DNA of 39,243 bases, from assembly GCA_045655025.1 (NCBI GenBank), contig JAZOOM010000235.1, positions 1 to 39,243 on the forward strand, read 5' to 3'. The notes beneath the pieces are model-generated. The model did not search any database. It was not told the origin of the DNA and worked only from the letters and a program-made list of their open reading frames with translations. The position numbers and the translations under genes are program-made. The stretch comes from Eubacteriales bacterium (GTDB lineage Bacteria > Bacillota > Clostridia > Oscillospirales > CAG-272). Below, in pieces: positions 1 to 39,243 of the stretch (its first letter is position 1; every line of letters begins with the position of its first letter).

Positions 1-1
1 G

Positions 2-1342
2 TACGAGGATCAACTGGAAAGCCAAAAGGAAGCCGAATCCCTTGATGCCATCCCCGAGACCAACGGCAACATCACGGGTAATAGCGCCCCCGATTATCAG
101 ACCCCCATCATCCTCAAAACCGGTGATACGCCCTTCTACGAGGGGAAAACCGTGGAAGAGCTGAAGGCCGTATTCCGCAGTTCCTCTACGAGGAGCGATC
201 CAACCGTGACCCCCACGGGGCGAATGTACCGCACGTACGACGAAAATATGTGGTACTACAACAAGCTCACGGGGAATTTCAGCGCGTGGTGCGCCGACCC
301 CCTCTGCAACGTGGTCGAAAACGAGAACTGTATCTGGTATGATTTCCTGTGGATCCTGTATATCAGCGACGAATACATCTACTTTCAAGCCACGGATCAC
401 CGAACCAACGACACCAAGGTGTACCGCTGCGACCACCAGAGGAACAACATTGAGGAGGTCATCGACATCGGGGAATACTACGAGCAACTGTACAAGCCCG
501 ACGGAACCTCCGGCGGGACCAGCGGAACCTACGACGATGTGGAAATACTCTCCGAGCAGGACGGTACCCTGTACTATTTTACCACGCGGATACTGACGAA
601 CGGCGACAGCGCCGGCTCTCTCTACGCCATGGATATCAAAACCAAGGAGGCTACCCTTCTGTCGGGAGAGCGGGATATCGATCTGGTGCAAATGGTGGGG
701 GACACCGTGTACTATACTCAGTCTCCCATGACCTATACCTGGTACAAGACCGACCTGTCCTTTGCTGACTCCACCCTCATGTGGGAAAACGTGAGCATTA
801 CCCAGAAAAATGACAGGTATTTCATTATTGGCAGATGGAAGGACGGATTCCTCGACACGTCCTTTTCCTATAATCTGCAAACGGGTGAGAGCCATGAGCT
901 GAGCCGAGGGGGCGGCTGTCTGTCGGGGAACTATCTCTACTATACACGAAAGCTCACCGACGAGGAGGTGGAAGGTGACCCCCACAAGGAATACTATACC
1001 TACACCTGGGAGGAGGAAAGCCCCCGCCCCGGCGGGAAGCCCATCACCAAAGAGAGCGACACCCGCGGCGCGGGAAAGATCTACCGCGTCTACGTGGGTG
1101 CCGACTACGCCCCCGAGGAATGCGTGTGCCAGCTTACCTACAAGGGAGTACCCGTCCGCCTGAAGAATATCGAGGCCGACGGCGAGGTGATCTATATCTC
1201 CTTCAACAACTATGAGGGATTTACCAATTTCTATAACCCCGACATTGACGACGGGGACGGGTACACCGCCCTCTGCTACGGCGCTGTGGATCTGCAAAAC
1301 GGAAGCGTGACCATATTGGAGCTGCCCGAAAATATGGAATAA
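2..1342 (+). CDS. Cell-surface propeller-like lipoprotein, subfamily A (paralog A1); 5' end outside window
   Basis: Frame 2 is open from base 2 to TAA at 1340-1342, so the track start at 152 is an internal GTG. Bases 2-150 translate to YEDQLESQKEAESLDAIPETNGNITGNSAPDY, colinear with the region just after the lipobox of paralog A3 (11596..12987). Family motifs: YYNKLTGNFSAWCADPLC...CIW, YRCDHQRNN, DPHKEYYTYTW, GKIYRVY, FNNYEGFTNFYNPD. About six [ILV]Y[YF]...Yxx(D) repeats. Confidence 0.9.
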   Translation, partial: YEDQLESQKEAESLDAIPETNGNITGNSAPDYQTPIILKTGDTPFYEGKTVEELKAVFRSSSTRSDPTVTPTGRMYRTYDENMWYYNKLTGNFSAWCADPLCNVVENENCIWYDFLWILYISDEYIYFQATDHRTNDTKVYRCDHQRNNIEEVIDIGEYYEQLYKPDGTSGGTSGTYDDVEILSEQDGTLYYFTTRILTNGDSAGSLYAMDIKTKEATLLSGERDIDLVQMVGDTVYYTQSPMTYTWYKTDLSFADSTLMWENVSITQKNDRYFIIGRWKDGFLDTSFSYNLQTGESHELSRGGGCLSGNYLYYTRKLTDEEVEGDPHKEYYTYTWEEESPRPGGKPITKESDTRGAGKIYRVYVGADYAPEECVCQLTYKGVPVRLKNIEADGEVIYISFNNYEGFTNFYNPDIDDGDGYTALCYGAVDLQNGSVTILELPENME

Positions 1343-1346
1343 TTGT

Positions 1347-1375: not shown

Positions 1376-1386
1376 CACGCCCGCGC

Positions 1387-1466
1387 AAAAATCGTGCCAC
1401 TCGGATATTTCGCGAAATCGGATTGTATGGTACAATAGGGCTGTACGATCCGTTTTTTTCGTACAG
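1387..1466 (+). promoter_or_regulatory. Conserved promoter cassette (palindromic operator candidate + extended -10 + leader hairpin) for A2
   Basis: 1387..1452 is base-for-base identical to 11500..11565 (66 bp). It contains a perfect palindrome ATTTCGCGAAAT (1407..1418) over the -35 position and an extended -10 TGgTACAAT (1428..1436). A leader hairpin CTGTACG/CGTACAG follows (1441..1447 / 1460..1466), then an AAAGGAAA RBS before ATG 1481. Confidence 0.6.
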
Positions 1467-1480
1467 AAAGGAAAGCGATT

Positions 1481-2932
1481 ATGAAAAAGGCCTTATTGCT
1501 TATATTGACAGCCATGCTGCTGTCCTCGTTTGCTTCATGCTCGTCCTGTTCCCGCAGGGATCAGTATGAGGACCAATTGGAAAGCCAAAAGGAAGCCGAA
1601 TCGGGGGCGCTGATCCCGCAGCCGGGAGCCGATGGCGTGGCGAATATCATTGGAACAAACGCGAGTGATTACGCGCTTGCCGTCATCAAAAAGACCTCCG
1701 ACAAGGGGTATTTTGCGGGAAATACCGAGGCACAGCTCATTGAAAAATATCAAGAAAACGCCTATCAGTTTGCGGGTAACCGCTATCTGCCCACGGGACG
1801 GGTGATTGGAGCCGGAAACGGACAGAATTACTTTTATAATAAGCTGACGGGAAACATCAGTGAGTGGTGTCCCGATCCGCTGTGTGAGCATGGAGAGGAA
1901 TGCATCTGGAATCACGGATGGACGGCAGACCCTATGCTGTATGTGGGAGAAAGTCACATCTATTTCCTGTCGACCTACAACGATTTCACTCTTCGCCTCT
2001 ACCGATGCGATTTTCAGCGTAACAACGTGGAGATGATTTTAGATAACGCCTTGGATATCTACAACATCTGGTACGAGAAGGACAACGTTTTGTACTACGA
2101 GCAGTTCGTATATGCCTCGGAGGGCGCGGCCGCCGTCAATACTCTGATGGCATTGGATATGCAAACGGGAGAGACAAAAGCCGTTTCCGATCCCAAGAAG
2201 GATATGTTCATTCAAGCCATCATACGGGATGCCGTTTATTTCAGCTACGAGTCTGATCCCAAGACTGTTTATAAAACTGATCTTTCCTTCTCGAATCCGC
2301 AAAAACTCTGGGAAAACGCGGGCTTTGAATCCTACAACGACAAGTACATTCTCACAAGGGGCAACAAGGACGAAAATGGGAAATACGCCTTTTCCGTCTG
2401 CCACATCGACAGCGGGAAAATCTATAGTCTGGGAAGTCTGACCGGAAGCCCTGTGCTTTCGGGAGATTACGTATACTACACTGAGGAGCTGAGTGATGAG
2501 GAGATTGCCGATGATCCTCACAAGGACTACTATACTTGGACGTGGGATAATGAGGATGTCTTTATCGATCAAGGAGGAGGATATGGAATCATTGAAAAAG
2601 GAGAAAAGGGATTAACAGCCCGAACACGCCCCGCCGGTCGTATTTTCCGTATGAAAACAGACGGCACCGAAAAGGAGTGTGTGCTACAGCTCACCTACAA
2701 GGGCGTTCCTGTCCGTATTGATTCCTGGAGCGTGGACGGCGAGTGTATCTGGTTTACCTACAACCATTATGATGAATTCAAAAACTATTACAACCAAGAC
2801 TACGGTTCCGACAAGCAAACACAGATCAAGCCCTCGGATGCGGAGCCGCGTCATTTGGCTATGGCCGATCTGCAGAGCGGTATTCTGCGGGTCATAGAGC
2901 TTGAGGAAGAGAGCTGTGAGGGACTGTGGTAG
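1481..2932 (+). CDS. Cell-surface propeller-like lipoprotein, subfamily A (A2)
   Basis: ATG with an upstream GGA-rich RBS. Signal peptide + lipobox (LLSSFASC). Motifs FYNKLTGNISEWCPDPLCEHGEECIW, YRCDFQRNN, DPHKDYYTWTW, GRIFRMKTDG, QLTYKGVPVR, YNHYDEFKNYYNQD. Confidence 0.9.
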   Translation: MKKALLLILTAMLLSSFASCSSCSRRDQYEDQLESQKEAESGALIPQPGADGVANIIGTNASDYALAVIKKTSDKGYFAGNTEAQLIEKYQENAYQFAGNRYLPTGRVIGAGNGQNYFYNKLTGNISEWCPDPLCEHGEECIWNHGWTADPMLYVGESHIYFLSTYNDFTLRLYRCDFQRNNVEMILDNALDIYNIWYEKDNVLYYEQFVYASEGAAAVNTLMALDMQTGETKAVSDPKKDMFIQAIIRDAVYFSYESDPKTVYKTDLSFSNPQKLWENAGFESYNDKYILTRGNKDENGKYAFSVCHIDSGKIYSLGSLTGSPVLSGDYVYYTEELSDEEIADDPHKDYYTWTWDNEDVFIDQGGGYGIIEKGEKGLTARTRPAGRIFRMKTDGTEKECVLQLTYKGVPVRIDSWSVDGECIWFTYNHYDEFKNYYNQDYGSDKQTQIKPSDAEPRHLAMADLQSGILRVIELEEESCEGLW

Positions 2933-2986: not shown

Positions 2987-2993
2987 GCGCATC

Positions 2994-3042
2994 AAAATCG
3001 TGCCGATGGGGTATTTTATCACCCCGAGGATTATGCTACAAT
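2994..3042 (+). promoter_or_regulatory. Degenerate copy of the cassette promoter, upstream of sigma factor 1
   Basis: AAAATCGTGCC is conserved with the cassettes at 1387 and 11500. The ATTTCGCGAAAT palindrome is replaced by GGGGT-N8-ACCCC. Extended -10 TGcTACAAT at 3034..3042. Confidence 0.5.
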
Positions 3043-3156
3043 AAAGCCAAACCTAAAAAGGCGGAGAATTTTTGCGACCTTCCTAAAAAGTTCCACACTT
3101 TCTTCGTCATAATAAGTAGAGGGGTCTTTACACTACGCAAGGGAAGGAGCATAGCC

Positions 3157-3735
3157 ATGGCCGAGCATATCATCACCGACGATGACATTATAGCCCTACT
3201 GTTCGCCCGCCGCGAGGACGGTCTGGAACAGGTAGCCAAGCGGTACGGCAGGGACTGTCACCGCATCGCCCGCAATGTTTTGGGGAGTGAGCAGGACGCG
3301 GAGGAATGTGTCAACGATATGTACATGAAGGTTTGGGATTCTATTCCACCCGCCCGTCCAAAATCCCTGCGCTCCTTCGTCTTGACCTTGACACGAAACT
3401 TAGCCATTGATAAGCTCCGCGTCAACCGTGCGGGGCGGCGCATACCCGCTGATATTTGCATCCCTCTCTCCGAGCTGGAGGAGCATCTGGAGGGCATCGC
3501 CGTCAGCGACGAACGCATGACCGAGGATCTGCGCCGTATCATCAACGAATTTTTGGATTCACTATCCAAAAAGGACGCCGCCCTGTTCGTTCGTCGTTAC
3601 TGGTATCTGGACTCGGTGCGCCGTTTGTCCGAGATCAGCGGTTACAGCGAAAACAACGTCTACCAACGCCTGTTCGTCATGCGGCAAAAGCTTCGTGACA
3701 GACTGATTAAGGAGGGTTACGAATATGAAGTATAA
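3157..3735 (+). CDS. ECF-sized sigma-70 family RNA polymerase sigma factor (sigma 1)
   Basis: The track start at 2926 would read through the terminator and promoter. ATG 3157 has the RBS GGGAAGGAG (3141..3149). 192 aa. Region 2-like DAEECVNDMYMKVWDSIPPARP...RNLAIDKLR and region 4 HTH-like RRLSEISGYSENNVYQRLFVMRQKLR. Paralog of 35571..36137. Confidence 0.85.
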   Translation: MAEHIITDDDIIALLFARREDGLEQVAKRYGRDCHRIARNVLGSEQDAEECVNDMYMKVWDSIPPARPKSLRSFVLTLTRNLAIDKLRVNRAGRRIPADICIPLSELEEHLEGIAVSDERMTEDLRRIINEFLDSLSKKDAALFVRRYWYLDSVRRLSEISGYSENNVYQRLFVMRQKLRDRLIKEGYEYEV

Positions 3736-5041
3736 AAAATCCGTAAAGCTGACGAGCCTGATAAACGATGAATACATCCTGTTGGGCGCTGAGGCCGAGG
3801 GGCTGTTCCGCCGTCGTGAGCGTGGCGTGTGGATCAAGCGCGCCTTGGTCATCGCCGCCTGCCTGTCTCTGCTGACCGTTGGCGTGGCGGCGATCCTGCT
3901 TCCGGCCTTGCGGAGGGATGAACCTCCCCAGATCGAAACCGAGACTGCGGAGGAAGAAGATCCGTCTGTGTTCTACCTCTCGGAAAAGAGCTACGTGACG
4001 GTGCAGTACCTCGTCGCGGGGAAGGAGCCGGACAGAGATGGCACCGAGACCGCAATCCCCGACAGCGATACCGTGCAGATCGACGAGGTGAACGCACGGA
4101 TCGGGCAACGCCTGATTTTGATTCACTTCATCTGCGCCGAGGGGGAGACGATTACCGTGACACCCACCGACCACTCCCGCTTGTTACCCGCCTACCGTTT
4201 CCTCTCCTCGGACGGGTACGTGCGGTGGAAGGTATGGAACGAGGCGCATCAGGCGTATGACCACGCCGAGGCCTATTGCTCGGATTGGGGAGGCAAGCCC
4301 TTGGAGGATATCGGGCAGAGCGTGACACTCACCGAGGACACCACCCTTCTGTGGCAGTACGAGATACGGGAGGCGAAGTATGAGAACAGTCCTACCCTCA
4401 TCCTTCCCTGCATCGAGGATAATTTCGTAGATTTCAAAGTAACGGATGCCCAAGGCAACATCACGGGCGGAGGAAGTATCTATATTGGTGGGCTGGATAT
4501 CGCCGCTATGACCGAAGATCATACCTATTATCGTAATGATTGGGTGGTTTATAATTCTATCTACCGTCCGCTTGTACTGGGTTCTTATCAGTATGGTTCT
4601 GATAATGGCAGTCCTGTCACCGAGGCATTCCATGATGAAACACTGGAGAGCCTCCATGCCCAGGCCCGAGAAAAACGAGACGAGACATTTGAGGATCTGT
4701 CCCCCGACAGCCCCCTGTTCTCCATGCGGAAGTTCGACCCCGACCACCACGAGACCTTCAGCAAGCATGATGAAAACGGCTATTCATGGAATATGAGTAA
4801 CTGGATCCATCACAGTCAAACCATGCCTTATGATCTGATTCTATTGGAATCCTCTAACTCGGAGCGTCGCTTCCTGCTCTACGATTTCGGCTATAACGAG
4901 ATTGCTGAAACCACCATTGAGATAGACAACGGGTTTGGCCGTATGGTCAAGGGCTGCTATGTCATGGTAGATGGCACTCACGTCTATGTGGACGAATCCA
5001 CCCCCGAGGGCTTTGTGATCGTACCGCCCACGGAGCAATAA
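3725..5041 (+). CDS. Putative membrane-anchored anti-sigma factor (anti-sigma 1), unrecognised extracytoplasmic domain
   Basis: ATG overlaps the sigma gene by 11 nt, with AAGGAGG about 10 nt upstream. Short cytoplasmic N-terminus, one TM (ALVIAACLSLLTVGVAAILLP), then about 375 aa outside. No zf-HC2 motif, so the anti-sigma role is inferred from position and topology only. Confidence 0.6.
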   Translation: MKYKKSVKLTSLINDEYILLGAEAEGLFRRRERGVWIKRALVIAACLSLLTVGVAAILLPALRRDEPPQIETETAEEEDPSVFYLSEKSYVTVQYLVAGKEPDRDGTETAIPDSDTVQIDEVNARIGQRLILIHFICAEGETITVTPTDHSRLLPAYRFLSSDGYVRWKVWNEAHQAYDHAEAYCSDWGGKPLEDIGQSVTLTEDTTLLWQYEIREAKYENSPTLILPCIEDNFVDFKVTDAQGNITGGGSIYIGGLDIAAMTEDHTYYRNDWVVYNSIYRPLVLGSYQYGSDNGSPVTEAFHDETLESLHAQAREKRDETFEDLSPDSPLFSMRKFDPDHHETFSKHDENGYSWNMSNWIHHSQTMPYDLILLESSNSERRFLLYDFGYNEIAETTIEIDNGFGRMVKGCYVMVDGTHVYVDESTPEGFVIVPPTEQ

Positions 5042-5060: not shown

Positions 5061-6386
5061 ATGTCAAAACGTAAACTTATCCCCATCGCTATCACCCTTG
5101 CCGCTCTGCTGGCGGTGGCTTTGTTTGCCGTCTCGCTGGCCTCCCGCCGCGCCCATGTCATCGGTAACGAGACCTATACCGAGGCTCCAAGTGAAACCCT
5201 ATCCCCTGACGAGCAATATCCTGCGGAGATAGATTGGATCGCCCTGTTTGAGGAATACGGAAATCTACGAAGTGAATCGGGTGCTACCAATAGTAACACG
5301 CCGTTCTTTTACTACTGGGAAAGTAATCAGTACAGCGAAACGCCCATTTTCAGCAAGACTGCGCGAACGCTGGATATACTCTGCAAGGAAGCCTTCTGCA
5401 CCCACGAGACCTGCATATTCAGCGACGCCGATGAGTGGTTTCTGTGTGGAGTCGCGTATTTGAACGGCCGCATCTATTTCCTTCAAGATCAAATTACCGA
5501 CCTGCAAGCCCGTCGCCTGTGCTCCACAGACCTCCACCTGAACGACCCGAGGATCGAGTGGGAGCAGTCTAAGGGGCTGGAATCCATGCAGGCGGACGGG
5601 GAACGGCTGTATTTCGAGGAAACGGTCTATGATGAAAACGGAACGCCGATCTACAACACGGTATCCTGGTATGACCCCGCGAGCCGGGAATCCGGTTTTG
5701 TTTCCGAAACACTTCACGTCAAGAATTATATCGTCAGAAACGACCGGGTGTATGTGTTGCAAGGCCGCAACAAGGTCGTATGCTGCCGGGTGGATGATCT
5801 GACGATCAGCACCCTGCTCGAACTGGAATTGAAGGATACCCAACAGATCATTTTGGAATATGTGGATGACCAATATCTGGTGTATACCGTCATGTTCGGC
5901 TACCAAATCGGCGAGCCCCAAAGATGTCAGCTGGACACGGGAGAGGTATCCTCCTACTATGATATGCTTCCGCAGGGGTACACCTATCTGCTCGGCGAAA
6001 ATTTCGGAGATCAGGCCTTTCTGTGCATCGACCACAGCGGAGAAGCGTATGCGGAGGATCCCTACCACGATTTTTACACGGATATGTACACGGCAGAAAT
6101 CACGTCGAATAAGTCTTTGATGGCGGGGCGTATCTATACGCTTACGAACGAGGGTACACTCCGTGAGCTTGTACAGCTCACGACCGACGGGATTCCCGAC
6201 TTGATCTGGGGTATTGTGGACTACGACGGCCGCTATCTGTACGTAGACTATCAGACCTACAAGGATTACAGAAACGAGTACAATCCCGAGGGAGATCGCC
6301 GTAATTCGGATTGGCATTTGGCGGTCATTGATACCCAGACAGGGCAGGTCGTAAAGCCCTGCGAAACCGAAACGACTCAAGAATAA
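5061..6386 (+). CDS. Membrane-tethered or secreted propeller-like protein, subfamily B (B1)
   Basis: RBS AAAGGAG. N-terminal hydrophobic anchor without a lipobox Cys (LFAVSLASRRAH). Motifs LCKEAFCTHETCIF, DPYHDFYTDMY, GRIYTLTNEG, QLTTDGIPD, YQTYKDYRNEYNP. Confidence 0.88.
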   Translation: MSKRKLIPIAITLAALLAVALFAVSLASRRAHVIGNETYTEAPSETLSPDEQYPAEIDWIALFEEYGNLRSESGATNSNTPFFYYWESNQYSETPIFSKTARTLDILCKEAFCTHETCIFSDADEWFLCGVAYLNGRIYFLQDQITDLQARRLCSTDLHLNDPRIEWEQSKGLESMQADGERLYFEETVYDENGTPIYNTVSWYDPASRESGFVSETLHVKNYIVRNDRVYVLQGRNKVVCCRVDDLTISTLLELELKDTQQIILEYVDDQYLVYTVMFGYQIGEPQRCQLDTGEVSSYYDMLPQGYTYLLGENFGDQAFLCIDHSGEAYAEDPYHDFYTDMYTAEITSNKSLMAGRIYTLTNEGTLRELVQLTTDGIPDLIWGIVDYDGRYLYVDYQTYKDYRNEYNPEGDRRNSDWHLAVIDTQTGQVVKPCETETTQE

Positions 6387-6395: not shown

Positions 6396-8786
6396 ATGCT
6401 GAAATACGAACTGAAAAAGCTCATCGGTAACAAATTCCTCTGCATCACCTTCGCATTCCTGTTCCTGCTCAACGCTCTCCTGTCCTTCTATGAGGCTCGT
6501 GATACCGCTCTGAACCGTGACTACTTCTGCCCCGAGGACGAGTGGCACGGCGAGCTTCTGGCCATGTACGAGCGGTATGAGGCAGACCCCGAGGCCTTCA
6601 TGAAGGAATATGAGGCGGAGATGGAGTACCGCGAGCTGGCCGATGAAATGTCGGATTACTACTTCAATTACGCGAGGGAAAACGGTCTGCTCATTAACGG
6701 CACCTTCGACCCCGCCGACTACTGGGACGAATACGACGGAGACCGATTGAACCGCATATACTTCACCTACCGCCGCTTCGGGAATACCATGGAGCGCATT
6801 GAGGAGTATCCCGGGCAGATGCAGGCGGTACTGACCCAGGCACAGCAGACCCGCGCCGAATACCTGGCCCAGGGTATGTCGGAGAACGACTACGCCTACC
6901 GCTTCCAGAGCGATATCATGGATATCTACTGGGCGAATCAGTACATACCTCTTGAAAACGAGTATATCCGCGGTTGGGAGCCCTACTTCGCTTATGACCA
7001 CGGGGGGCTTTGCTTACTCCTGTTTTTGTTGGTGCTGGTAACGGGCATGATCCTGGACGAGAAAAAGAGCGGCATTTTCCCCCTCATCCACGCTACGCGT
7101 GAAGGGCACACCACCCTGATCCTCACCAAATTCGCCGCCCTGCTGACCGCCGTCACGGTAGCCGTTATCGCCTTTTCGGGCACCACGCTCCTGTTCTACG
7201 GCCTCCGCTACCACGGCTTTTCCTCCCTTGGCGGCTATGTTCAGCTCATGGAGGATTACCTCTACTGTCCCCAGATGCTCAAGGTAGGCGAGCTGCTGGT
7301 GCTGACCGTCCTCATGAAGATCCTTGCCATGACCGCCCTGGGTATGCTCATTCTCATGCTCTCCGCCCTCCTGCGGAGCCATGCCTTTACCTACATGAGC
7401 GGCCTTGTGCTGGTGGCGGGGAATTTCGTCCTGTACCTGACCGAATATCTGGATCCCAATCACCCCTTGCGCCTCATGAACGCCTTTGCGGTCATGGACA
7501 CGGATCTCCTGTTCGGACAATATTACGCTATCAATTTCTTTGGCTTTGCCATCCCCGCGCTCCCCTGTATCATCGGAGCTCTGCTCGCCCTCATAGCCGT
7601 CTGCGGCGGCATTACCGTGTATCTTTTTAACCGCGCCGACGGGAAAGCCACCCTTCGTCTGCCCGAGAAGCTGACCCGTATGTTCAGCCGCAAGCGGTTC
7701 CGTCTCCCCACCATCCCCTGCCTCATCCGCACCCGTTCGGGATATGAGTGCCACAAGCTTTTGGTGGCCGGGAAATACATCATTCTCATCCTTGTCGTGC
7801 TGTTCCTTAAGGTCGAAATTACAGACCGTACCGTGACGCCCCACCTCGCCCCCTCGGATGCACGCTACCGCAGCTACATGACCCTTTTGGAGGGAGAAGC
7901 CACCGACGAGAAGCTGACCTACATCCAAGAGGAGCGGGACATGGTGGACGAGATCATCTACAGCGAAAAGCCCATGCAGAACAAGTACTTCAAGGCGGAG
8001 ATCAGCTACGAGGAATACGTGGAGTATCAGGACGCGCTGGAGGACGCCAAGGTGCGGGATAAGGCGCTGTTACAGGTGGAGGCCCGCCGCGACCATATCC
8101 TTGCCCTCCGCGCCGAGGGACAGGAGGCCTACTTCCTGTACGACACGGGCTGGAATCACCTGCTGACCCTGGGCTTTGATTACTTGCTCTACGCCGCCGT
8201 TCTGCTCCTGTTCGCGGGGCTGTTCGCCTCGGAGTACCGTGCAGGCATGACTGCCATCCTCCGCGCCACCAAGGGCGGACGGGGACACACCTTTGCGGTA
8301 AAGTTTGCCTTGGCCGTCATCCTCGCTTTGGGGCTGGGTATCACTTTTGCCGCTATTGACTACAACGCGGTTATCCCCCTTTACCGTTTTCCTGCCTCGG
8401 ATGCCCCTGCCGCCAGCCTGATCCTTTTCGGCAGCGTACGCGGGAGTTTGACCATCGAGCAGCTTTTCTGGGTCTACGAAACCTTGCGCACGCTGGGTTT
8501 TGTCCTTTTGGCAGTCGCCACCGTATCCCTGTCGGCGCTGTTTGAGAAGACGGTATCCTGTATGTCCACCGTGGCGGCGGTCACGCTGATCCCCTACGCC
8601 ATCACCGCCTTTGGCCTGGATGCGGCCAAGTACGCCGATTTCACCGCCCTGCTCAGCGGCCATGAGTATATCACCCTGCTGACGGCATCCCCCCTCTACG
8701 GCATCCTGTTCACGGTGACCGTACTCACGCTTACGGTGGGTTTGTTCGCCCTCTGCCACCGCAAATGGGTCAGAAGTACGTCGTGA
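6396..8786 (+). CDS. Fused (internally duplicated) ABC-2-type transporter permease (Perm1)
   Basis: 796 aa with an MLKYELKKLIGNKF N-terminus. Two homologous halves: YELKKLIGNKF / YECHKLLVAGKY and EKKSGIFPLIHATREG / EYRAGMTAILRATKGG. Each half has TM1, a soluble acidic loop of about 170-190 aa, and about 5 hydrophobic segments. Confidence 0.85.
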   Translation: MLKYELKKLIGNKFLCITFAFLFLLNALLSFYEARDTALNRDYFCPEDEWHGELLAMYERYEADPEAFMKEYEAEMEYRELADEMSDYYFNYARENGLLINGTFDPADYWDEYDGDRLNRIYFTYRRFGNTMERIEEYPGQMQAVLTQAQQTRAEYLAQGMSENDYAYRFQSDIMDIYWANQYIPLENEYIRGWEPYFAYDHGGLCLLLFLLVLVTGMILDEKKSGIFPLIHATREGHTTLILTKFAALLTAVTVAVIAFSGTTLLFYGLRYHGFSSLGGYVQLMEDYLYCPQMLKVGELLVLTVLMKILAMTALGMLILMLSALLRSHAFTYMSGLVLVAGNFVLYLTEYLDPNHPLRLMNAFAVMDTDLLFGQYYAINFFGFAIPALPCIIGALLALIAVCGGITVYLFNRADGKATLRLPEKLTRMFSRKRFRLPTIPCLIRTRSGYECHKLLVAGKYIILILVVLFLKVEITDRTVTPHLAPSDARYRSYMTLLEGEATDEKLTYIQEERDMVDEIIYSEKPMQNKYFKAEISYEEYVEYQDALEDAKVRDKALLQVEARRDHILALRAEGQEAYFLYDTGWNHLLTLGFDYLLYAAVLLLFAGLFASEYRAGMTAILRATKGGRGHTFAVKFALAVILALGLGITFAAIDYNAVIPLYRFPASDAPAASLILFGSVRGSLTIEQLFWVYETLRTLGFVLLAVATVSLSALFEKTVSCMSTVAAVTLIPYAITAFGLDAAKYADFTALLSGHEYITLLTASPLYGILFTVTVLTLTVGLFALCHRKWVRSTS

Positions 8787-16243: not shown

Positions 16244-17014
16244 TTAGGAATGGTTATCCAAGTTTTTCAGCACCATCAGGGTGGTAAAGACCCGATCCTC
16301 GCAGGAAAATACCAGCTCTCCCTTGTACTTACGCACTAAAGCACGCATGGTGGGGATTCCCAATCCGTGCCGTTCGGGGGAGCCCTTGGCGGTCTCCAGA
16401 CGTTGAATATCCACGTCCCGCAACACCGCGTTTTTCACTAGGATCACCAACGTCTCGTGCTTGACCGTCACCGTCACCGATACCCACCGCGCTCCCTCGT
16501 TCGGGATCCTTGCCGCCGCCTCAATGGCGTTGTCCAGGGCGTTTCCCAGCAGGATGGCCAGATCCACGTAAGGCACCGTCACCGAGGGGAGCTTGTGGGC
16601 GTGATACTCCCACCCGATGCCCTTGTCCCGTGCTAACGCCGCTTTGGTGTTGATGAGGGTGGTGATAAGATCGTTTTCCCCCGTCACCAGACGGATCTCC
16701 CCCAGCCGTTCCAGCTCGGCCTCCACCGAGGCGATCGCCTCGGCTGTGTTTCCCTGCGAGAGGGTCGCCAGCAGCCCCATAAGGAAATGCCGCTGATCGT
16801 GCTGCATTTTCAGAAGATCCCGATGGTTGTCCATGATGAGGCGGTACTGCTCGGCCTGGGTGGCCGCCGTCTCCCGCGCTTTTTTATCTCGCGCATCCCT
16901 GAGCCGTTCCCGCTCCTTCCGTAAACGGAGGGTGGACACCAGCACCCATGAAAGAAGCAGCAGGAGCAACAGCGACAGTCCCGCCGCCAAGATCCAGAAT
17001 ATGGGCTTTTCCAT
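16244..17014 (-). CDS. Single-TM GHKL sensor histidine kinase (AgrC/LytS-like HPK10 core, no obvious sensor domain)
   Basis: One N-terminal TM (IFWILAAGLSLLLLLLLSWVLV), a charged helical linker, H-box QHDQRHFLMGL, N-box LLGNALDNAIEA, G-box GLGIPTMRALV. ATG 17014 overlaps the RR stop (TGATG). GTG 17017 is the alternative start. Confidence 0.85.
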   Translation of the reverse strand: MEKPIFWILAAGLSLLLLLLLSWVLVSTLRLRKERERLRDARDKKARETAATQAEQYRLIMDNHRDLLKMQHDQRHFLMGLLATLSQGNTAEAIASVEAELERLGEIRLVTGENDLITTLINTKAALARDKGIGWEYHAHKLPSVTVPYVDLAILLGNALDNAIEAAARIPNEGARWVSVTVTVKHETLVILVKNAVLRDVDIQRLETAKGSPERHGLGIPTMRALVRKYKGELVFSCEDRVFTTLMVLKNLDNHS

Positions 17015-17718: not shown

Positions 17719-17748
17719 GGTCATACTCTCCCATTTTAAGATAACACC

Positions 17749-17777
17749 ATTATACCACATTCCGTGGCTTTTGTAAA
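17749..17777 (-). promoter_or_regulatory. Sigma-A-type promoter of the LytTR RR-kinase operon
   Basis: Read on the minus strand: TTTACA (17777..17772), a 17-nt spacer, then extended -10 TGgTATAAT (17757..17749). Confidence 0.65.
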
Positions 17778-32350: not shown

Positions 32351-33823
32351 ATGAAAACCAAACGAATTTTAGCTACTACGCTGGCCGCCCTTATGCTGGC
32401 ATCTACCCTCGCCTCCTGCTCCCGCCGCGACAAATTCCGCCCCGACGAGACCGATGCCTCCACAGGAGAACAGACCACGGTCGCGGGACAGACCAACGTA
32501 AGTAATCCCGCCGAAAGTAACCCCACCGACACCAACCAAAGCGGTGGGGATGTAACCGACTCGGATGCCACCGCTCCGCCTAATAATCCTATCATTACGC
32601 CTCCTCTCGTTGGTGGCGTAACCGAGAAGATCACCGGCAACCCCTACGAGGGCTGGACAATCGAAGAGTTATATGCGTCCTTTCAGCAGGAATCCGAGCG
32701 CTCGGTCTACAACAATGAATACGGCTTTTTCGGGAATACGCCCTACTACGTGATCCTCGACGTGCAGCATGGCGGCTATATGTTCAGTAAGCTGACGGGT
32801 GAGGTAGTGCCCCTGTGCAAGGATCCGCTTTGCGAACACAACTCCTGCATTTTCAGCCACAACACCCTCTTTCATCGGACGTGTCAGGTGGTTAATGATC
32901 GCATTTATCTGGTTGTGCTGGATGCCATCGGAATGCGGTACGTCCTGTATTCCTTTGACCTGCTCATGAATGACCCCAAGCTGATCTGCGAGTGGAAGGA
33001 TGCTCCCGATAACGCCACGATCTATGAGGGAAAGGTTTACTACAACACGCGCCTGAAAACCGATGACGGTAAGACCGTCTACAGCGGCATGGTTTACGAC
33101 ATCAAGGAAAAAACCACAACTCCCCTGTGGGAGGATCGCAGAGACTGCAACGCGATCCGCTACGATGGGGACTCTATATGGTATACGCCACGCAATGACG
33201 GCTCTCTCAGACGGTTTGATCGCGTTACAGGGGAGGATTCCGTTATCCTTTCGGGAAGCCTTTTGAACCGCGAGGCGGGGGAAACCACATTCGTGTTTCT
33301 GGCTGCCTCAGATCGGGAGGTGTACGTGCGGAAACGGTTGGCAGACGGCAATACCACAAACATTCTGCGGTACCATACCGAAACGGGTGAACTGACCGAC
33401 ACAGGATGGGGACAGGCTGTTTTGTACGGAGATCACGTCTACCTGAACATCTCCCATGCCGTGGAAGAGAATCGGGACGATCCCCATTATGAGTATTATT
33501 TCAACAGCAATACCTACGGCATCGGCACCCGCTGGGGTGGGAAATGGTATATGCACGATCCTGAGACTAGTGAGCCCCGCGTTATCGTGAATCTCCAAAC
33601 CGACGGTATTCCCGATTGCTTTGTCAATTCTCTGTTTATGGATGGCCGATTCGTTTTGATCGAATACCAGACCTACAAGGATTTCACCAATCCCTACAGT
33701 CCCACGGTTCCCGAGTGGGTCAGGAGCAGGCGGTACGTAGTGGTGGATCTTATTACAGGACAGGCATTTGATGCAGGCGTGGATCTGTCCAGGCAGACGG
33801 CGGAGAATCCCTATGGACGGTGA
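32351..33823 (+). CDS. Cell-surface propeller-like lipoprotein, subfamily C (C7)
   Basis: ATG 32351 (MKTKRILATTLAALMLASTLASC) with an AAAGGAG RBS. The track start at 32279 is inside C6. Motifs LCKDPLCEHNSCIF, LYSFDLLMND, DPHYEYY, YQTYKDFTNPYSP. Confidence 0.9.
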   Translation: MKTKRILATTLAALMLASTLASCSRRDKFRPDETDASTGEQTTVAGQTNVSNPAESNPTDTNQSGGDVTDSDATAPPNNPIITPPLVGGVTEKITGNPYEGWTIEELYASFQQESERSVYNNEYGFFGNTPYYVILDVQHGGYMFSKLTGEVVPLCKDPLCEHNSCIFSHNTLFHRTCQVVNDRIYLVVLDAIGMRYVLYSFDLLMNDPKLICEWKDAPDNATIYEGKVYYNTRLKTDDGKTVYSGMVYDIKEKTTTPLWEDRRDCNAIRYDGDSIWYTPRNDGSLRRFDRVTGEDSVILSGSLLNREAGETTFVFLAASDREVYVRKRLADGNTTNILRYHTETGELTDTGWGQAVLYGDHVYLNISHAVEENRDDPHYEYYFNSNTYGIGTRWGGKWYMHDPETSEPRVIVNLQTDGIPDCFVNSLFMDGRFVLIEYQTYKDFTNPYSPTVPEWVRSRRYVVVDLITGQAFDAGVDLSRQTAENPYGR

Positions 33824-33952: not shown

Positions 33953-35374
33953 ATGAAAAAGCTGCTTCTGCTCGCGCTGGCCACCACGATTCTGCTTGCT
34001 TCTTTTGCCTCCTGCTCCCGCCGCGGGGCTTATGAGGATCAATTGGAAAGCCAAAAGGAAGCCGCATCCATGGATGCAGCTATGGACACAGGTCCTGTCC
34101 GCGGTGAGAATCACGAGGACTACGATGTGACCATGGAGATCGACACCGAAGCCAAAACAGAGGGGAATACCTCGGGTAATGTGCAAGATCCGCCCGCCGA
34201 CGAGCCCCCAAGCTCCACATTCTACCGTGGTGGCACGCTCCTGCCCACGGGTAAGAAATACTACGTGAATTCGGTGGCATACTTCTACAACAACTTGACA
34301 GGCAACATCAGCCATTGGTGCAGCGATCCTCTGTGTCCCCACGACGAGAGCTGTATCTGGTCGAGTAATCTGTACGCCAAGCTGGAATACGTCAGCGACA
34401 AGCATATCTATTTCATATCCGACTACGGCGATATGGTGCCTAAGCTGTACCGTTGCGACCTACAGCGGAACAACATTGAGCTTTTGTACGAGCTGCCCGG
34501 CGTGGCCGAGGACAAGGCTACCTACTACGACCATGTTGAGGTGGTCTACGAGAAGGGGGACAAGGTCTATTTCGTCCAGAGCGAATACAAGTCCCAGGGA
34601 AAGAGCGTGACCGCCTTCAAGGTGTTGGACGCGGTTTCCAAGGAGATCACGGTTTTGTCGGGAGACAAGAGCGTACAGATCGAGGCCGTTGTTCGGGACA
34701 TGGTCTACTATTCTCTGCGCGGTGTTGCCTCGGCGGAGGATACGGTGATCTACAAAACCGATCTGTCCTTTGCGAATGCGGAGGAAGCCTTCAAGGCCTG
34801 TACCATCCGTGACTACAACAACGAATATATGCTGATAGAAAAATACGAAAACGGCTACGGCTGGACAACACTCAATCCCGTCTATGCTTACTGCATGAAC
34901 ACGGGCACCTATATCCCCCTGCCCACAGGTGACGGAGCCGTGAACTTCAAGCTGTCGGGGGACTGCGTTTTCTTTGAAAAGCCCCTTTCGGCGGAGGAGA
35001 TCCAAGGCTCCCCCTTGAAGGATTACTATGAATACACCTGGCAGACTCGGGAGGAGATGCCCGACGGCACGGTCATCACCAGCGGGATCAAGAACGCCTC
35101 CACCACCCGCGCGGGGAAAATCTACCGCATGAAGCTTGGGAGTGAGAAAATCGAATGCGTGGTGAGCTTTGCCTACAAGGATATCCCTGTTCGCATTGAG
35201 GACTTTGAGGTAAATGGTGACAAGGTTTACTTCACCTTCAAAAACCACGAGGAGTTCAAGAATTTCTACAATCAGGATTTTGACGAAATGAGTCAATATG
35301 TATTCCCTCATTACGCCGTAGCGGATCTGAAGGGACAGAATGTGACCATTTTGAGCTTTGACGGGCTGGATTAA
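33953..35374 (+). CDS. Cell-surface propeller-like lipoprotein, subfamily A (A4)
   Basis: Lipobox LLASFASC. Motifs CSRRGAYEDQLESQKEA, FYNNLTGNISHWCSDPLCPHDESCIW, YRCDLQRNN, SPLKDYYEYTW, GKIYRMKLG, FKNHEEFKNFYNQD. Confidence 0.9.
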   Translation: MKKLLLLALATTILLASFASCSRRGAYEDQLESQKEAASMDAAMDTGPVRGENHEDYDVTMEIDTEAKTEGNTSGNVQDPPADEPPSSTFYRGGTLLPTGKKYYVNSVAYFYNNLTGNISHWCSDPLCPHDESCIWSSNLYAKLEYVSDKHIYFISDYGDMVPKLYRCDLQRNNIELLYELPGVAEDKATYYDHVEVVYEKGDKVYFVQSEYKSQGKSVTAFKVLDAVSKEITVLSGDKSVQIEAVVRDMVYYSLRGVASAEDTVIYKTDLSFANAEEAFKACTIRDYNNEYMLIEKYENGYGWTTLNPVYAYCMNTGTYIPLPTGDGAVNFKLSGDCVFFEKPLSAEEIQGSPLKDYYEYTWQTREEMPDGTVITSGIKNASTTRAGKIYRMKLGSEKIECVVSFAYKDIPVRIEDFEVNGDKVYFTFKNHEEFKNFYNQDFDEMSQYVFPHYAVADLKGQNVTILSFDGLD

Positions 35375-35570: not shown

Positions 35571-36137
35571 TTGAAGGATGATGGGATCATCGAGCTGTTG
35601 CAAAGCCGTGATGAGAAGGCCATCGAAATGACGGCGGAACGGTACGGACGTTACTGTATGCAGATCGCCATGAATATTCTGCACAATGAATGGGACGCGG
35701 AGGAATGTGTGAACGATGCCTATCTTCGCTTGTGGAACAGCATCCCGCCCGCGCGCCCGAAAGTCCTGCGGGCATTTCTCGGGCGGATCGTGCGGAATCT
35801 GTCCATTGACCGCCACCGCTCTATCCACCGCGCGGGCTACAACAGCGATCTGGAGGTGTCTCTGGAGGGCTTGATGGAGGAGCTGGGGGACTGTATTCCG
35901 AGCGATGATGAGGTCCCCGGCTCGGTGCTGGAGGCATTACCCGGGCTGTTTGACGGTTTTCTGGAGAAGGAGACCGAGCTGAACCGCAAGCTGTTCGTGG
36001 GCCGGTATTGGCATGGCTACAGCATGGTTGTACTGGCGGAGGGCTATGGGATTTCCGAGGATGCGGTAGACGGACGGTTGCGGCGGATTCGGGAGCGGTT
36101 GCGGAATTATCTGGAAGAGAGGGGGATTCGAATATGA
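35571..36137 (+). CDS. ECF-sized sigma-70 family sigma factor (sigma 2)
   Basis: TTG start with GGGAGG about 9 nt upstream. Region 2-like DAEECVNDAYLRLWNSIPPARP...RNLSIDRHR. Region 4-like VVLAEGYGISEDAVDGRLRRIRERLR. Paralog of 3157..3735. Confidence 0.8.
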   Translation: MKDDGIIELLQSRDEKAIEMTAERYGRYCMQIAMNILHNEWDAEECVNDAYLRLWNSIPPARPKVLRAFLGRIVRNLSIDRHRSIHRAGYNSDLEVSLEGLMEELGDCIPSDDEVPGSVLEALPGLFDGFLEKETELNRKLFVGRYWHGYSMVVLAEGYGISEDAVDGRLRRIRERLRNYLEERGIRI

Positions 36138-37495
36138 GGAGAACCAACTATGAGGCTTATAAGCAGCTCAGCGGTATACGGGACGATTACATCACCGAAG
36201 CCGAGCTGCCCATGGCATATGTGAAAAGAAGCATGAGGCGCAGGCGGCTGAAAAACAGACTCAGCCGTGTGGTGCAAAGCAACTGGTTTGTTGCCGCTGT
36301 ATGCACCATTGTATCCTTGAGCACGGTCTCTTGGATCGCATATATGGGGCAGAGGATACCCACGGAGGTTCCCCCGCCTTATGGCAGTATGCAGGAGAGC
36401 ACCGCCACGCAGTATGGCGATCAGGATCCTATGATCTTGTATGCCAATCCCTACGAGGGCATGAGCCGGGAGGAGCTGTATGAGCTCTACGCAAGACAGG
36501 AGACCGCCATTTCCCGGGCCGTGACGGATCATGCCAACAGACAGTACCAAACCCCGTACTACGTGTTTGTGAGCGACACGGAAAAAGAAGCCCGTGTATT
36601 TAATAAGCTGACGGGAAAATATGAGAGCATTTGCAAGATAGAGGGGTGTGAACACACCAATCCGGAGGACTGTCCCGCCACGTATACGAAAGGCCTTGTT
36701 CCGGGTTCATTACGGGTGGCGAACGACTGCGTCTACGCGATTCTGGACACCGGGCAAGGTGAGCAGGCTCTGTTTACCTTCGATTTGGATCTGACTAATC
36801 CGCAGATGCGGGGAGCGTACACATCACCGTCTCCCTTGGTTATGGCCTATCGGAATCTCCTTGTGGCTAACGGCACCATCTACGATGTGTGTATGAGCAT
36901 TACCCCTAAAGACGGCCGATTCCATTTTGATTCGGCGCGCTTCATCGTTGAAAATGGGGATATACAGGAGTTTGCGAGCATGATCTCCCACATACGGGAC
37001 GGGGCGCTTTTGTACTTTTCTACCCATGAAGGAATTATGCAAGCGAACCTGCAAACGGGAGAGATCGTCACTCTGCTCTCTGCCGCAGAGCTGGGGTATG
37101 AGGTCTACGATCTCCCGGAACGGGACAGCAGCAGCGGATATCCACTGCTCACCGCCTTGAAAAACGGCCGATTGTATATCGAAACCGTCACGGTCACGGG
37201 AGAGAGCCGTTACTGTACCTTGACGCTGGACACCATGACTCTTGATCCGTATATACCCGCTTGGGAGGAGACCGCGCCCGAATCGTTCCTTGTTTACGAC
37301 GGGACTGCCTACATGGTGAAGCAGGGCGTTGTTTATGCCACACCGTTGGATGGGGCTGACACCAAAATGGTCGCCCGCCTCCCCGATGGGCGGGCGTGTA
37401 TCCTTGTTTCCTGTGATGGCAGGATCCTGTATGCGGAAACCGAAACTCATATTCTGATGATTGAGTTGGAAACAGGAAAGATTTATATTCCATAA
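36134..37495 (+). CDS. Putative anti-sigma factor whose extracytoplasmic domain belongs to the propeller-lipoprotein family (anti-sigma 2)
   Basis: ATG 36134 overlaps the sigma 2 stop (ATGA). The track start at 36008 is inside sigma 2. About 50-aa cytoplasmic part, then a TM (WFVAAVCTIVSLSTVSWIAYMG). Family motifs follow: ANPYEGMSREELYELY, TPYYVFV, FNKLTGKYESICKIEGCEHTNPEDC, FTFDLDLTNP, C-terminal DGRILYAE...IELETGKIY. Confidence 0.75.
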   Translation: MRRTNYEAYKQLSGIRDDYITEAELPMAYVKRSMRRRRLKNRLSRVVQSNWFVAAVCTIVSLSTVSWIAYMGQRIPTEVPPPYGSMQESTATQYGDQDPMILYANPYEGMSREELYELYARQETAISRAVTDHANRQYQTPYYVFVSDTEKEARVFNKLTGKYESICKIEGCEHTNPEDCPATYTKGLVPGSLRVANDCVYAILDTGQGEQALFTFDLDLTNPQMRGAYTSPSPLVMAYRNLLVANGTIYDVCMSITPKDGRFHFDSARFIVENGDIQEFASMISHIRDGALLYFSTHEGIMQANLQTGEIVTLLSAAELGYEVYDLPERDSSSGYPLLTALKNGRLYIETVTVTGESRYCTLTLDTMTLDPYIPAWEETAPESFLVYDGTAYMVKQGVVYATPLDGADTKMVARLPDGRACILVSCDGRILYAETETHILMIELETGKIYIP

Positions 37496-37522
37496 TGAAA
37501 TAACCGCGAAAGGGGCGATCTC

Positions 37523-39243
37523 ATGATCCGATACGAAATCAAAAAGCTGTTTGGCAACAAATTCATCCCCATTTTCTTTGTCATCATGTTCGCCTTGAAC
37601 CTACTGCTATCCTACTACGCCGCCCCTCGCTCACGGGGTGAGCTGAACCTGCATTCCGAGCTGGATGCGGAGACCCAGGCCATTGTGGATGAAATGTACG
37701 CACGCTACGAGGCGAATCCCGAGACGTTCATGGAAGAATTCTCAAGCTGTCGGGCGTACTATCTGACATCCATCGAAATGACCTCTCTGGTGACCGAGAA
37801 GAACATGGAAGCCATGATGCGGGGCGAGGAGGGCAACTACACCATACAGGATTTTTGGCCAGAATATAACGAGGAAATTCAAGCCAAGGTGGATCTTTAT
37901 TTCAATACCTATCGGTATTTCTACCGCGTCAGTGGATACGTCACGGAGGAGTACCCCGCGCTTCTGAAGAGTGTGATCGACAACGCCAAGCTGTTTCAGG
38001 AGGAATACCTGGCCTACGGCATGAGCGCGGACAGCTACGAATACCACTACCAGAGCGACGTGATCGACGTTTACTCCGTAAACAAGAATCTGCCCATTCG
38101 CTTTGAGGATCGCAAGGGGTGGGATATGTATTTCACCTATACCGACGGCAATATCTGTATGCTGCTATTCATCCTCGTCCTCATCCCGGGACTTCTGCTG
38201 GATGAGAAAAAGAACGGCACCTTTCCCATTCTCCGCGCCACGAAACAAGGACAGTTGGCTCTGATCGTCACCAAATACATAGCCCTGCTGCTGGTCTCTG
38301 CCGCTTCCGTCCTGCTGTTCAGCGGAGCCACGTGGATCATTTTCGGATTGGAAAGCGGCGGGTATTCCTCTCTCTCCAACTTCGCGCAGATCTTTGAGGT
38401 GAACGTGTACTGCCCGTACATCGTCACGGTGGGTGAATATCTCGGTTTGACCCTGCTCATCAAAATACTCTCCCTGTTCTCGGTGGGCTCTCTGCTCATG
38501 ACGGTTTCCTTGTTGGTCAAGAATCACGCTCTCAGCTACCTTGCGGGGCTGATCTTCGGAGGGGCAAACTTCGCCGTCCACTTCACGGATTTTCTGGACA
38601 CGGATCATCCTCTCCGCCTACTCAACATCTTCACCGTCATGGATACCGAGGTGTGCTTCACCCGTTACCATGCCATCAATATGTTCGGGCGGTGTCTGCC
38701 CTATTTGTCCGCTATTTTCCTCTTTTTCGGTCTGCTTTTGGCCTGTACCGCCGTGGCGACGGGACTGCTTTACTGTCGTACCCCCGGTGTTCATAAGGTA
38801 CGGCGGAGGAAGTCGCGGAGCAAGCGGGCGATATTCACCAAGGCCATCCCGTGCCCCGTGCGTCTCATGGGCGTGTACGAGCTGCACAAGCATTTGGTGG
38901 CGGGAAAATGGCTACTCCTGATCCTGGCCGTCCTGCTGGTCAAGGGCTATACGGTGTACACCACCGAATCGGTGGCGTACTCCTTTTCGGACGCGGTCTA
39001 CCGGGACTACATGGAGCTTTTGGCGGGAGAAGTCACCGACGCCAAGCTTGCCTACATGGAGGACGAGCGCGCCTATCTGGACAGCATCCTTTCCTCCGAG
39101 GAAATCATGAAGGAGGAGTACGCGAGCAAGGAGATCTCCTTTGCCGAATACATGGAATACCAGGACGAGCTGGATACGGCAAAGGCCAAAGACCCCATTT
39201 TCGTGTCCGTGGAAGCCCAGCGGGATCACCTGCTTGCCTTGCG
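37523..39243 (+). CDS. Fused ABC-2-type transporter permease (Perm4); 3' end outside window
   Basis: Absent from the supplied ORF track because there is no stop codon in the window. ATG 37523 has GAAAGGGG upstream. My translation MIRYEIKKLFGNKFIPIFF... stays open to the window end and is colinear with Perm3 (LLDEKKNGTFPILRATKQG vs LLDEKKNGTYPIIRATKLG; second half begins YELHKHLVAGKW). Confidence 0.85.
   Translation, partial: MIRYEIKKLFGNKFIPIFFVIMFALNLLLSYYAAPRSRGELNLHSELDAETQAIVDEMYARYEANPETFMEEFSSCRAYYLTSIEMTSLVTEKNMEAMMRGEEGNYTIQDFWPEYNEEIQAKVDLYFNTYRYFYRVSGYVTEEYPALLKSVIDNAKLFQEEYLAYGMSADSYEYHYQSDVIDVYSVNKNLPIRFEDRKGWDMYFTYTDGNICMLLFILVLIPGLLLDEKKNGTFPILRATKQGQLALIVTKYIALLLVSAASVLLFSGATWIIFGLESGGYSSLSNFAQIFEVNVYCPYIVTVGEYLGLTLLIKILSLFSVGSLLMTVSLLVKNHALSYLAGLIFGGANFAVHFTDFLDTDHPLRLLNIFTVMDTEVCFTRYHAINMFGRCLPYLSAIFLFFGLLLACTAVATGLLYCRTPGVHKVRRRKSRSKRAIFTKAIPCPVRLMGVYELHKHLVAGKWLLLILAVLLVKGYTVYTTESVAYSFSDAVYRDYMELLAGEVTDAKLAYMEDERAYLDSILSSEEIMKEEYASKEISFAEYMEYQDELDTAKAKDPIFVSVEAQRDHLLAL

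Follow-up and report, generated by a model that had tools for sequence, protein, structure and literature searches.

The DNA analysed here, a 39,243-bp stretch referred to throughout as the window, is a complete contig (JAZOOM010000235.1) of an NCBI metagenome-assembled genome (MAG) and represents a multi-operon cluster of an uncultured ruminant-gut Clostridia bacterium. About half of it encodes a single family of exported, membrane-tethered proteins with a predicted propeller fold, and its genes are co-transcribed with those of a distinctive ATP-binding cassette (ABC) exporter of the ABC-2 class and tied to them in evolution. An earlier, sequence-only reading recognised the family but missed how closely its genes share operons with those of four fused ABC-2 permeases, of three ATPases and of BspA-type leucine-rich repeat (LRR) lipoproteins, which is the strongest functional clue in the cluster. 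With confidence about evenly balanced, the propellers are read here as non-enzymatic proteins, tethered at the surface, that serve the ABC exporters as binding partners or sensors.

The nearest relatives of the window are the Clostridia MAGs RGIG8947, 8736, 1996 and 4611 from the hindgut of water deer, goat and roe deer, which share 91-95% DNA identity with it and keep its synteny; NCBI annotates the family in all close relatives as 'hypothetical protein [Clostridia bacterium]'. The 14 homologous open reading frames (13 complete, A1 cut by the contig start) lie on the + strand and add up to 20,064 nt, or 51% of the window, at the coordinates and in the number first reported. They fall into subfamilies A, B and C and a sigma-linked fusion, F. 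In all-against-all BLASTP, members of C share 49-68% identity, members of A 36-57% and B1 and B2 about 40%, and matches between subfamilies, mostly full-length, have E-values of 1e-5 to 1e-20 (A-C), 1e-14 to 1e-25 (B-C) and 1e-12 to 1e-15 (F-C). Profile-profile comparison by hhalign (E 1e-12 to 1e-34 overall) gives 1.4e-30 over 425 columns for A-C, 1.9e-34 for B-C and 6.4e-12 for F-C, and similarity is significant even for the weakest of the three subfamily pairs, A-B, at 1.3e-18. A, B, C and F are one family of homologues, as had been proposed.

All genes of the window but two are on the + strand, with intergenic gaps mostly of 3-27 nt. The 5' part runs A1 (cut), A2, o1, o2, B1, o3, o4, B2, A3, o5, o6; a histidine kinase and a response regulator follow on the minus strand, between o6 and C1; and the 3' part runs C1, C2, o9, o10, C3, o11, o12, C4-C7, A4, o13, F, o14 (cut). 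The family members, the transporter genes and the LRR lipoproteins are as follows.

2..1342, +: A1, subfamily A, 5' end cut by the contig start with about 26 N-terminal residues absent; 57% identical to A3
1481..2932, +: A2, subfamily A lipoprotein, assigned from sequence, BLASTP and profile comparison
5061..6386, +: B1, subfamily B, signal anchor without a lipobox Cys
6396..8786, +: o3, fused ABC-2 (type V) permease paralog with two transmembrane domains, 796 aa
8809..10017, +: o4, BspA-type LRR_5 lipoprotein
10037..11464, +: B2, subfamily B
11596..12987, +: A3, subfamily A lipoprotein
12991..15312, +: o5, fused ABC-2 permease paralog, 773 aa
15330..16193, +: o6, ABC ATPase with a DrrA/GldA/PmtC-like nucleotide-binding domain (NBD)
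17915..19381, +: C1, subfamily C lipoprotein, the member used for modelling
19407..20891, +: C2, subfamily C
20906..21781, +: o9, ABC ATPase
21797..22660, +: o10, ABC ATPase
22680..24167, +: C3, subfamily C
24228..26633, +: o11, fused ABC-2 permease paralog, 801 aa, the permease used for modelling
26635..27876, +: o12, BspA-type LRR_5 lipoprotein
27891..29372, +: C4, subfamily C
29380..30849, +: C5, subfamily C
30862..32337, +: C6, subfamily C
32351..33823, +: C7, subfamily C
33953..35374, +: A4, subfamily A lipoprotein
36134..37495, +: F, cytoplasmic N-terminus, one transmembrane segment and a family propeller; putative anti-sigma factor with a propeller sensor
37523..39243, +: o14, fourth fused ABC-2 permease paralog, cut by the contig end

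Operon linkage between the family and ABC exporters

Immediately ahead of every permease gene stands a family member, from another subfamily in each case: B1 lies 9 nt upstream of o3, A3 3 nt upstream of o5, C3 60 nt upstream of o11 and F 27 nt upstream of o14. The module of member, permease and ATPase recurs in distant genomes. One such locus (L009) holds a member, a permease, an ATPase and another member in sequence, a second (L010) has six members, a sigma/anti-sigma pair and a permease, and in a third (L011) an ATPase and a 761-aa permease homolog (hidden Markov model (HMM) E 8.6e-82) are followed by a bona fide PF16472 lipoprotein. The pairing of member and permease is also kept on a 143-kb contig of a close relative (L017), where the cluster runs on beyond the 3' end of the window. 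There, at 11390-19295, a full-length permease (PF12698) comes after F, then an LRR_5 lipoprotein, then three of the further copies that the sequence-only reading had proposed to look for in relatives; the complete cluster therefore has at least 17 members. The permease tree, (o11,o14)|(o3,o5) with 99% bootstrap, mirrors the family's own {C,F}|{A,B} split, supported at 57%, and this fits co-duplication of member-permease pairs. A second recurrent neighbourhood, seen in two more distant genomes and absent from the window, has a member directly downstream of a MoxR AAA/DUF58/BatA/VWA operon (L009, 1-5311; L014, 3504-9929).

The permeases o3, o5, o11 and o14 are paralogs at 36-52% identity, each the product of an internal duplication. 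Pfam finds no match in these four themselves, and PF12698 (ABC2_membrane_3) is present in some of their orthologs. An AlphaFold2 (AF2) model of o11, with a predicted local distance difference test score (pLDDT) of 79, is all-helical and made of two units, each with a first transmembrane helix (TM1), long extracytoplasmic helical hairpins and then five transmembrane helices. The halves superpose on the membrane domains of PmtD, NosY and ABCG with TMt of about 0.55 per half and a Foldseek probability of about 1.0, a modest match at E 0.02-0.2, and the fold is closest to PmtD. The ATPases o6, o9 and o10 are nearest to the NBDs of ABCA proteins (ABCA3/4/7/1), NosF and PmtC, and also to DrrA, GldA and lantibiotic-protection models, none of them above the curated cut-off. 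Combined, the ATPase NBD, the permease model and PF12698 in the orthologs indicate a predicted type V (ABC-2) exporter, with membrane domains fused in one 770-800-aa permease that carries sizeable helical outer domains.

Among the best bacterial structural and sequence matches are NosF and NosY. The NosDFY-NosL system offers a precedent for an ABC-2 machine that serves extracytoplasmic partner proteins, beyond solute pumping. However, the window has no NosD, NosL or NosZ homologs and no copper-related evidence, and its host is a Gram-positive-type Clostridia.

Could the exporters serve immunity instead? In the classical LanI/LanFEG layout an immunity lipoprotein stands beside an ABC-2 exporter. 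The cluster might likewise consist of bacteriocin or antimicrobial-peptide immunity modules, LanFEG plus LanI-like or PmtCD-like, in which the exporter expels a membrane-active peptide, the propellers sequester it at the surface and the paralogs cover many competitor toxins. This is the most specific form that the exporter reading takes, and an unlikely one. Like these systems the window combines an ABC-2 NBD, a type V membrane-domain fold with PmtD as nearest neighbour, a lipoprotein beside the pump and an adjoining LytTR two-component system. The ATPases do score against the lantibiotic-protection (TIGR03740, 2.8e-43), bacteriocin-export and PmtC models, but all scores fall far under the family cut-offs (148 vs 309.75 bits for TIGR03740). 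The permease halves, unlike those of LanFEG or PmtCD, are fused and bear large helical outer domains, and the lipoprotein is an unrelated propeller that has no LanI-type homology and, at 360 residues, far exceeds known immunity lipoproteins in size. Paralog content that differs between strains and propellers that evolve faster than the transporter genes would suit such a role, but bacteriocin and modification genes are absent from the window, and Pfam and NCBIfam gave no immunity-family match (PADLOC was not searched). On ATPase score and lipoprotein homology, the cluster falls outside LanFEG/LanI.

Fold, DUF5050 relationship and export

All seven motif classes of the family recur in the same order in 13 of the 14 members, so the ordered motif set first described holds for all but F. 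F, whose C-terminal half has diverged, lacks DPHxxYY, DGIP and YQTYKDF but keeps the N-terminal motifs and the closing (L/V)ETG. A Cys-x4-Cys-x4-7-Cys knuckle lies upstream of the propeller. The sequence-only reading had called it a Cys/His cluster, but A1, A3 and many A-type relatives have no such His, and only the three Cys are invariant.

The fold was modelled for C1 with AF2 on a 40-sequence alignment (mean pLDDT 81, above 90 across most of residues 91-488). A disordered Pro/Thr/Asp-rich linker (residues 19-90) leads through a short helix (NPYEGWTAEELYASF) into an all-beta domain of 27 strands. Within the region that codes for the linker (window 18064-18107) is a 15-nt tandem repeat of 2.9 copies, which encodes NP(N/T)ES/D-type low-complexity sequence. 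Foldseek of the C1 model against the PDB returned propellers exclusively. The lowest E-values belong to six-bladed Kelch and designer propellers, and the best TM-score to 3S25 (TMt 0.65, 370 columns, E 4.6e-8), a DUF5050-type '7-bladed beta-propeller-like protein' of Eubacterium rectale (EUBREC_1955). The family has seven sequence repeats of the type 'YY ... Y-D-x-x-(T)G', and the motif YYV...FSKLTG is itself a blade repeat, with the Cys knuckle inserted behind it. Seven repeats, 27 model strands and a seven-bladed best match favour seven blades over six: the propeller proposed earlier is borne out as a fold, but it probably has one blade more than was counted.

The assignment to a known propeller class had been put as DUF5050- or YWTD-style. 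A Pfam scan of seven members, including A, B, C and F, gave no PF16472 match at E<=1 (gathering score 27 bits), and Pfam and NCBIfam scans alike left family members unrecognised. The only Kelch HMM match is B2 at E 0.25, the Kelch matches in Foldseek have TMq of about 0.3, and the family lies outside Kelch. It also lies outside the YWTD/low-density lipoprotein receptor class B propellers, which have six YWTD repeats and six blades, against seven repeats and 27 strands here. A PDB search with the family profile returned marginal YWTD and peptidase propeller matches and nothing stronger; those to nidogen/LRP6 have E 0.13-0.39, and 6e-4 with the profile of a wider set.

That wider set comes from an exhaustive profile search of 1.84 billion cluster representatives, in which 516 clusters scored E<=1e-3 and 80 reached E<=1e-30. 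Its more distant matches are lipoproteins of 370-530 residues that share CxDPxCxHx(2-6)C, and PF16472 matches 15 of 32 sampled (best E 8.9e-16). The window family aligns end to end with these Cys-knuckle lipoproteins (hhalign probability 100%, E 4.6e-52, 406 columns), and the wider-set profile matches 3s25_A at E 1.2e-13. Because members escape a direct Pfam match yet share full-length homology with a set that does match PF16472 and 3s25_A, profile comparison places the family as a divergent branch of the DUF5050/PF16472 superfamily that current models miss. The DUF5050 half of the earlier assignment therefore holds transitively, and the YWTD half does not. PF16472 has been renamed LRP1-like_beta_prop in newer Pfam.

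The fold and the superfamily, a domain of unknown function, were thus already known, and the clade of the window lies outside existing models. Family and DUF5050 proteins alike are exported Firmicutes propellers of YY...Y-D-x-x-G repeats, related over their full length via intermediates, with the fold of 3S25 and with function unassigned in both. What sets the window members apart is an N-terminal helix and Cys knuckle, upstream of the 3S25-matching part in the profile alignment, and an expansion to at least 14 copies embedded in ABC exporter operons. As had been stated earlier, Pfam and NCBIfam scans and a literature search revealed no characterised function for the family. Nor did a literature search on DUF5050, PF16472 and 3S25 find a functional study; the sole assignment is TsgL, the DUF5050 propeller component of T7SSg, a type VII secretion variant (bioRxiv 10.1101/2024.01.30.577966). 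TsgL resembles the window family as a DUF5050-type propeller accessory to a membrane ATPase-driven export machine. However, the T7SSg machine uses an FtsK/EssC ATPase and WXG100 substrates, TsgL is single-copy, and the window has no type VII secretion genes. Distant DUF5050 relatives (among them P0233) lie in a Tad-pilus/YukD/FtsK-EssC locus like the published T7SSg with TsgL (L015, 1183-2301 and 10831-11613); the superfamily would therefore assist two or more different export machines.

Another propeller precedent is BtuG of Bacteroides, a seven-bladed lipoprotein that acts as a very tight small-molecule receptor for vitamin B12 (PMC6143338); 3S25 served as electrostatics control in the same paper. 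By analogy, the window propellers could capture a nutrient or cofactor at the surface and feed an importer, which is very unlikely. A surface-tethered propeller lipoprotein genetically linked to a transporter in a gut-dwelling organism is what such a role calls for, but the ATPase and permease are of the ABC-2/type V class, typical of exporters. BtuG itself belongs to another phylum and a TonB-dependent importer, is not expanded, has no detectable homology to the family and (as 3DSM) falls outside the 50 best Foldseek matches. The search for a substrate-binding-protein family, a riboswitch or an Rfam match came back empty, and metabolic genes are absent from the window.

Among 40 family sequences the invariant residues are C156, C161 and C166 (C1 numbering), P131, Y186, G398 and P422. 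By type, the invariant positions are Cys, Tyr, Gly, Pro or Asp, and none is a catalytic-type His, Ser or Glu, which argues for binding rather than catalysis. That the propellers are enzymes, secreted or on the surface (lactonase/SGL-type hydrolases, lyases or peptidase-associated propellers, for example), is accordingly highly improbable. The wider family does weakly match oligogalacturonate lyase, tricorn and peptidase propeller profiles, with SGL in one distant relative, but these matches span generic blade repeats only and no catalytic domain is associated.

Export signals were read directly off the protein sequences. A lipobox, (F/L)(A/V)SC at residues ~18-24, identifies A2-A4 and C1-C7 as bacterial lipoproteins. 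B1, B2 and F lack it: B1 and B2 have a long hydrophobic N-terminus with no Cys, and in F a cytoplasmic, Arg-rich stretch precedes a single transmembrane segment. The family is exported and membrane-tethered, by the three modes that the sequence-only reading had listed.

Selection, variability and a possible role

Ratios of nonsynonymous to synonymous substitution (dN/dS), taken from orthologs of the window and the related MAGs, are 0.14-0.37 for family members, 0.05-0.10 for permeases and 0.01-0.06 for the ATPases o6 and o10. Propellers are therefore under purifying selection, 3-5 times looser than that on the transporter genes, and gene-wide dN/dS gave no sign of positive selection. Paralogs are 50-68% identical and orthologs 89-99%, from which it follows that the duplications predate divergence of the related MAGs. 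The number and content of the tandem C array vary among MAGs, and some copies are only 45-82% identical to any window paralog. Variability among 48 C-type sequences is highest at residues 260-370, in the middle blades; the conserved parts are the N-terminal helix, the first blade, the Cys knuckle and the C-terminal stretch YQTYKDF...LETG.

Dense expansion had suggested diversifying ligand or antigen recognition at the cell surface. If so, the propellers could be independent, diversifying surface adhesins or antigens, with the ABC adjacency incidental, a rather unlikely account. Copy number and content do vary among related MAGs, and dN/dS does exceed that of permeases and ATPases, but it remains purifying overall. 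Neither propeller face is preferentially variable, as the difference is non-significant with alternate loops as a proxy for the two faces (p=0.13). The window was also examined for inverted repeats bracketing promoters (invertons), simple-sequence tracts and the silent cassettes typical of phase or antigenic variation, and none were found. BspA-type LRR adhesin-like lipoproteins share the operons and some members elsewhere have no ABC neighbours, but the member-permease gene pair is kept across distant genomes. Together with the age of the duplications, these results speak against diversifying recognition as the main reading.

Two further observations concern how the copies have evolved. Over most of the first ~125 codons, which encode the signal peptide, linker and first helix, third-codon-position identity among C1-C7 (17915-33823) is 0.59-0.67; downstream it is 0.34-0.59, mostly below 0.50. 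The higher 5' identity may point to gene conversion or to homogenisation in this part of the genes. The ATPase genes o6 and o10 are 98% identical in amino acids and 91% in nucleotides, with 64 of 78 nucleotide differences at third codon positions; a recent duplication was rejected on these grounds, and the pattern indicates an old duplicate under very strong purifying selection.

How might propellers and exporters work together? In the mechanism proposed for their role as exporter partners, the propellers, tethered on the outer membrane face, would act as non-enzymatic binding modules that dock on the extracytoplasmic domains of the cognate exporter, or pass ligand to or from them. The conserved N- and C-terminal propeller parts would supply a common docking interface and the variable middle blades specificity, so that the propeller could be a ligand-binding, acceptor or specificity subunit of the exporter. 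A more specific version is possible but doubtful: the family would be the extracytoplasmic partner subunit of an undescribed class of Clostridia ABC machine made of fused type V permease with helical outer domains, Cys-knuckle DUF5050 propeller and BspA-type LRR lipoprotein, and F a transporter-coupled sensor, the ECF-sigma (extracytoplasmic function) counterpart of Bce-type flux sensing.

Several findings weigh against partnership with the exporters. Agreement between two trees of four pairs is expected by chance 1 in 3, and the family split among them has only 57% support. A permease is present in four or five of nine independent contexts, that is, linkage is frequent and non-universal. Three contexts (L012, L013 and L016) carry members without a permease, in a fourth (L014) the member adjoins the MoxR/DUF58/BatA/VWA operon, and the more distant DUF5050 protein of L015 is in a type VII secretion locus. 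At least 14 propellers face 4 permeases, so 1:1 complexes are impossible for most copies. The Cys knuckle may be a metal site or a disulfide, and none of the known anti-sigma domain models matches the N-terminus of F (no Pfam match, E<=10).

DUF5050-type propeller lipoproteins are common in gut Firmicutes and have no assigned function, and a role as partner subunit of an ABC machine would be the first functional assignment for DUF5050 proteins. If the propellers are exporter specificity subunits, a large set of hypothetical genes in the gut Clostridia of ruminants and humans would be accounted for, and type V ABC transporters would gain a new type of accessory protein. The cluster offers a testable handle in its three-gene module, a putative natural sensor version on an anti-sigma-like anchor, and an expansion to at least 14 copies with docking-like and variable parts. 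On a limited literature search, we know of no earlier description of a module that brings a propeller together with a fused ABC-2 permease, an LRR lipoprotein and an ATPase, of its duplication into four copies that pair each permease with its own subfamily, or of a propeller fused to a putative anti-sigma factor.

Regulatory genes and upstream elements

The regulatory features of the window are the following.

1385..1480, +: terminator/promoter-like conserved element upstream of A2, with further copies at 11498-11595 (before A3) and 33856-33952 (before A4)
3154..3735, +: o1, ECF-type sigma factor (TIGR02937, 76.9 bits vs cut-off 42.9); the likely start is the Met aligned with o13
3725..5041, +: o2, single-pass membrane protein, putative anti-sigma factor with an unrelated extracytoplasmic domain
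16244..17017, minus: GHKL histidine kinase, one transmembrane segment, without a sensor domain
17014..17760, minus: LytTR response regulator
35571..36137, +: o13, ECF-type sigma factor

Both sigma factors, o1 and o13, exceed the cut-off of the ECF model. The start of F overlaps the o13 stop codon (ATGA), and F is translationally coupled to this sigma gene. Its putative identity as an anti-sigma factor with a propeller sensor is positional, from the ATGA overlap, the single transmembrane segment and an N-terminal motif, IRDDxIxEA, that is common to o2 and recurs in anti-sigma-like fusions of other lineages (P0115, P0129 and P0158). In the proposed mechanism the propeller module of F, carried on this membrane-spanning N-terminus, would sense ligand binding or transporter state, and F would relay the signal to o13, which would drive expression. 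In the RsgI-type anti-sigma factors of Clostridium thermocellum, the extracellular sensor domains are paralogs of the binding modules of the regulated proteins. F is similar in that its sensor is a copy of a module abundant in the putatively regulated gene set. The sigma factor of the window, however, is a generic ECF type (TIGR02937) and not SigI, F has no RsgI_N match, and the sensor is a propeller rather than a carbohydrate-binding module.

The gene o2 overlaps o1 by 11 nt. Its product shares the N-terminal motif and single transmembrane segment of F, but has an unrelated outer domain of 370 residues without a family match; it is a putative second anti-sigma-like sensor, heading the B1-o3 operon. 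Sequence comparison found no homology between o2 and the propeller family, and it was rejected as a fifteenth member. Alignment of the regions upstream of o1 and o13 showed suggestive shared blocks and no clean ECF promoter consensus.

The histidine kinase is 257 aa long, with one transmembrane segment and no extracytoplasmic domain, and its partner is the LytTR regulator. A sensorless kinase beside ABC operons recalls transporter-dependent (Bce-like) sensing. Between the regulator and C1, at 17749-17869, strong divergent promoter-like sites, with 11/12 matches each, face the two genes.

The conserved element before A2, A3 and A4 spans about 95 nt, with a 29-nt core found exactly three times against 0 expected; Rfam gave no match for it. 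It folds into a terminator-like 13-bp hairpin with a U-run (z=-2.8) that overlaps an extended -10-like TGGTACAAT, and resembles a terminator/promoter unit that was duplicated and sets the A genes apart as transcription units of their own. Part of the element, AAATCGTGCC...TACAAT, is also found upstream of the sigma gene o1, at 2990-3045.

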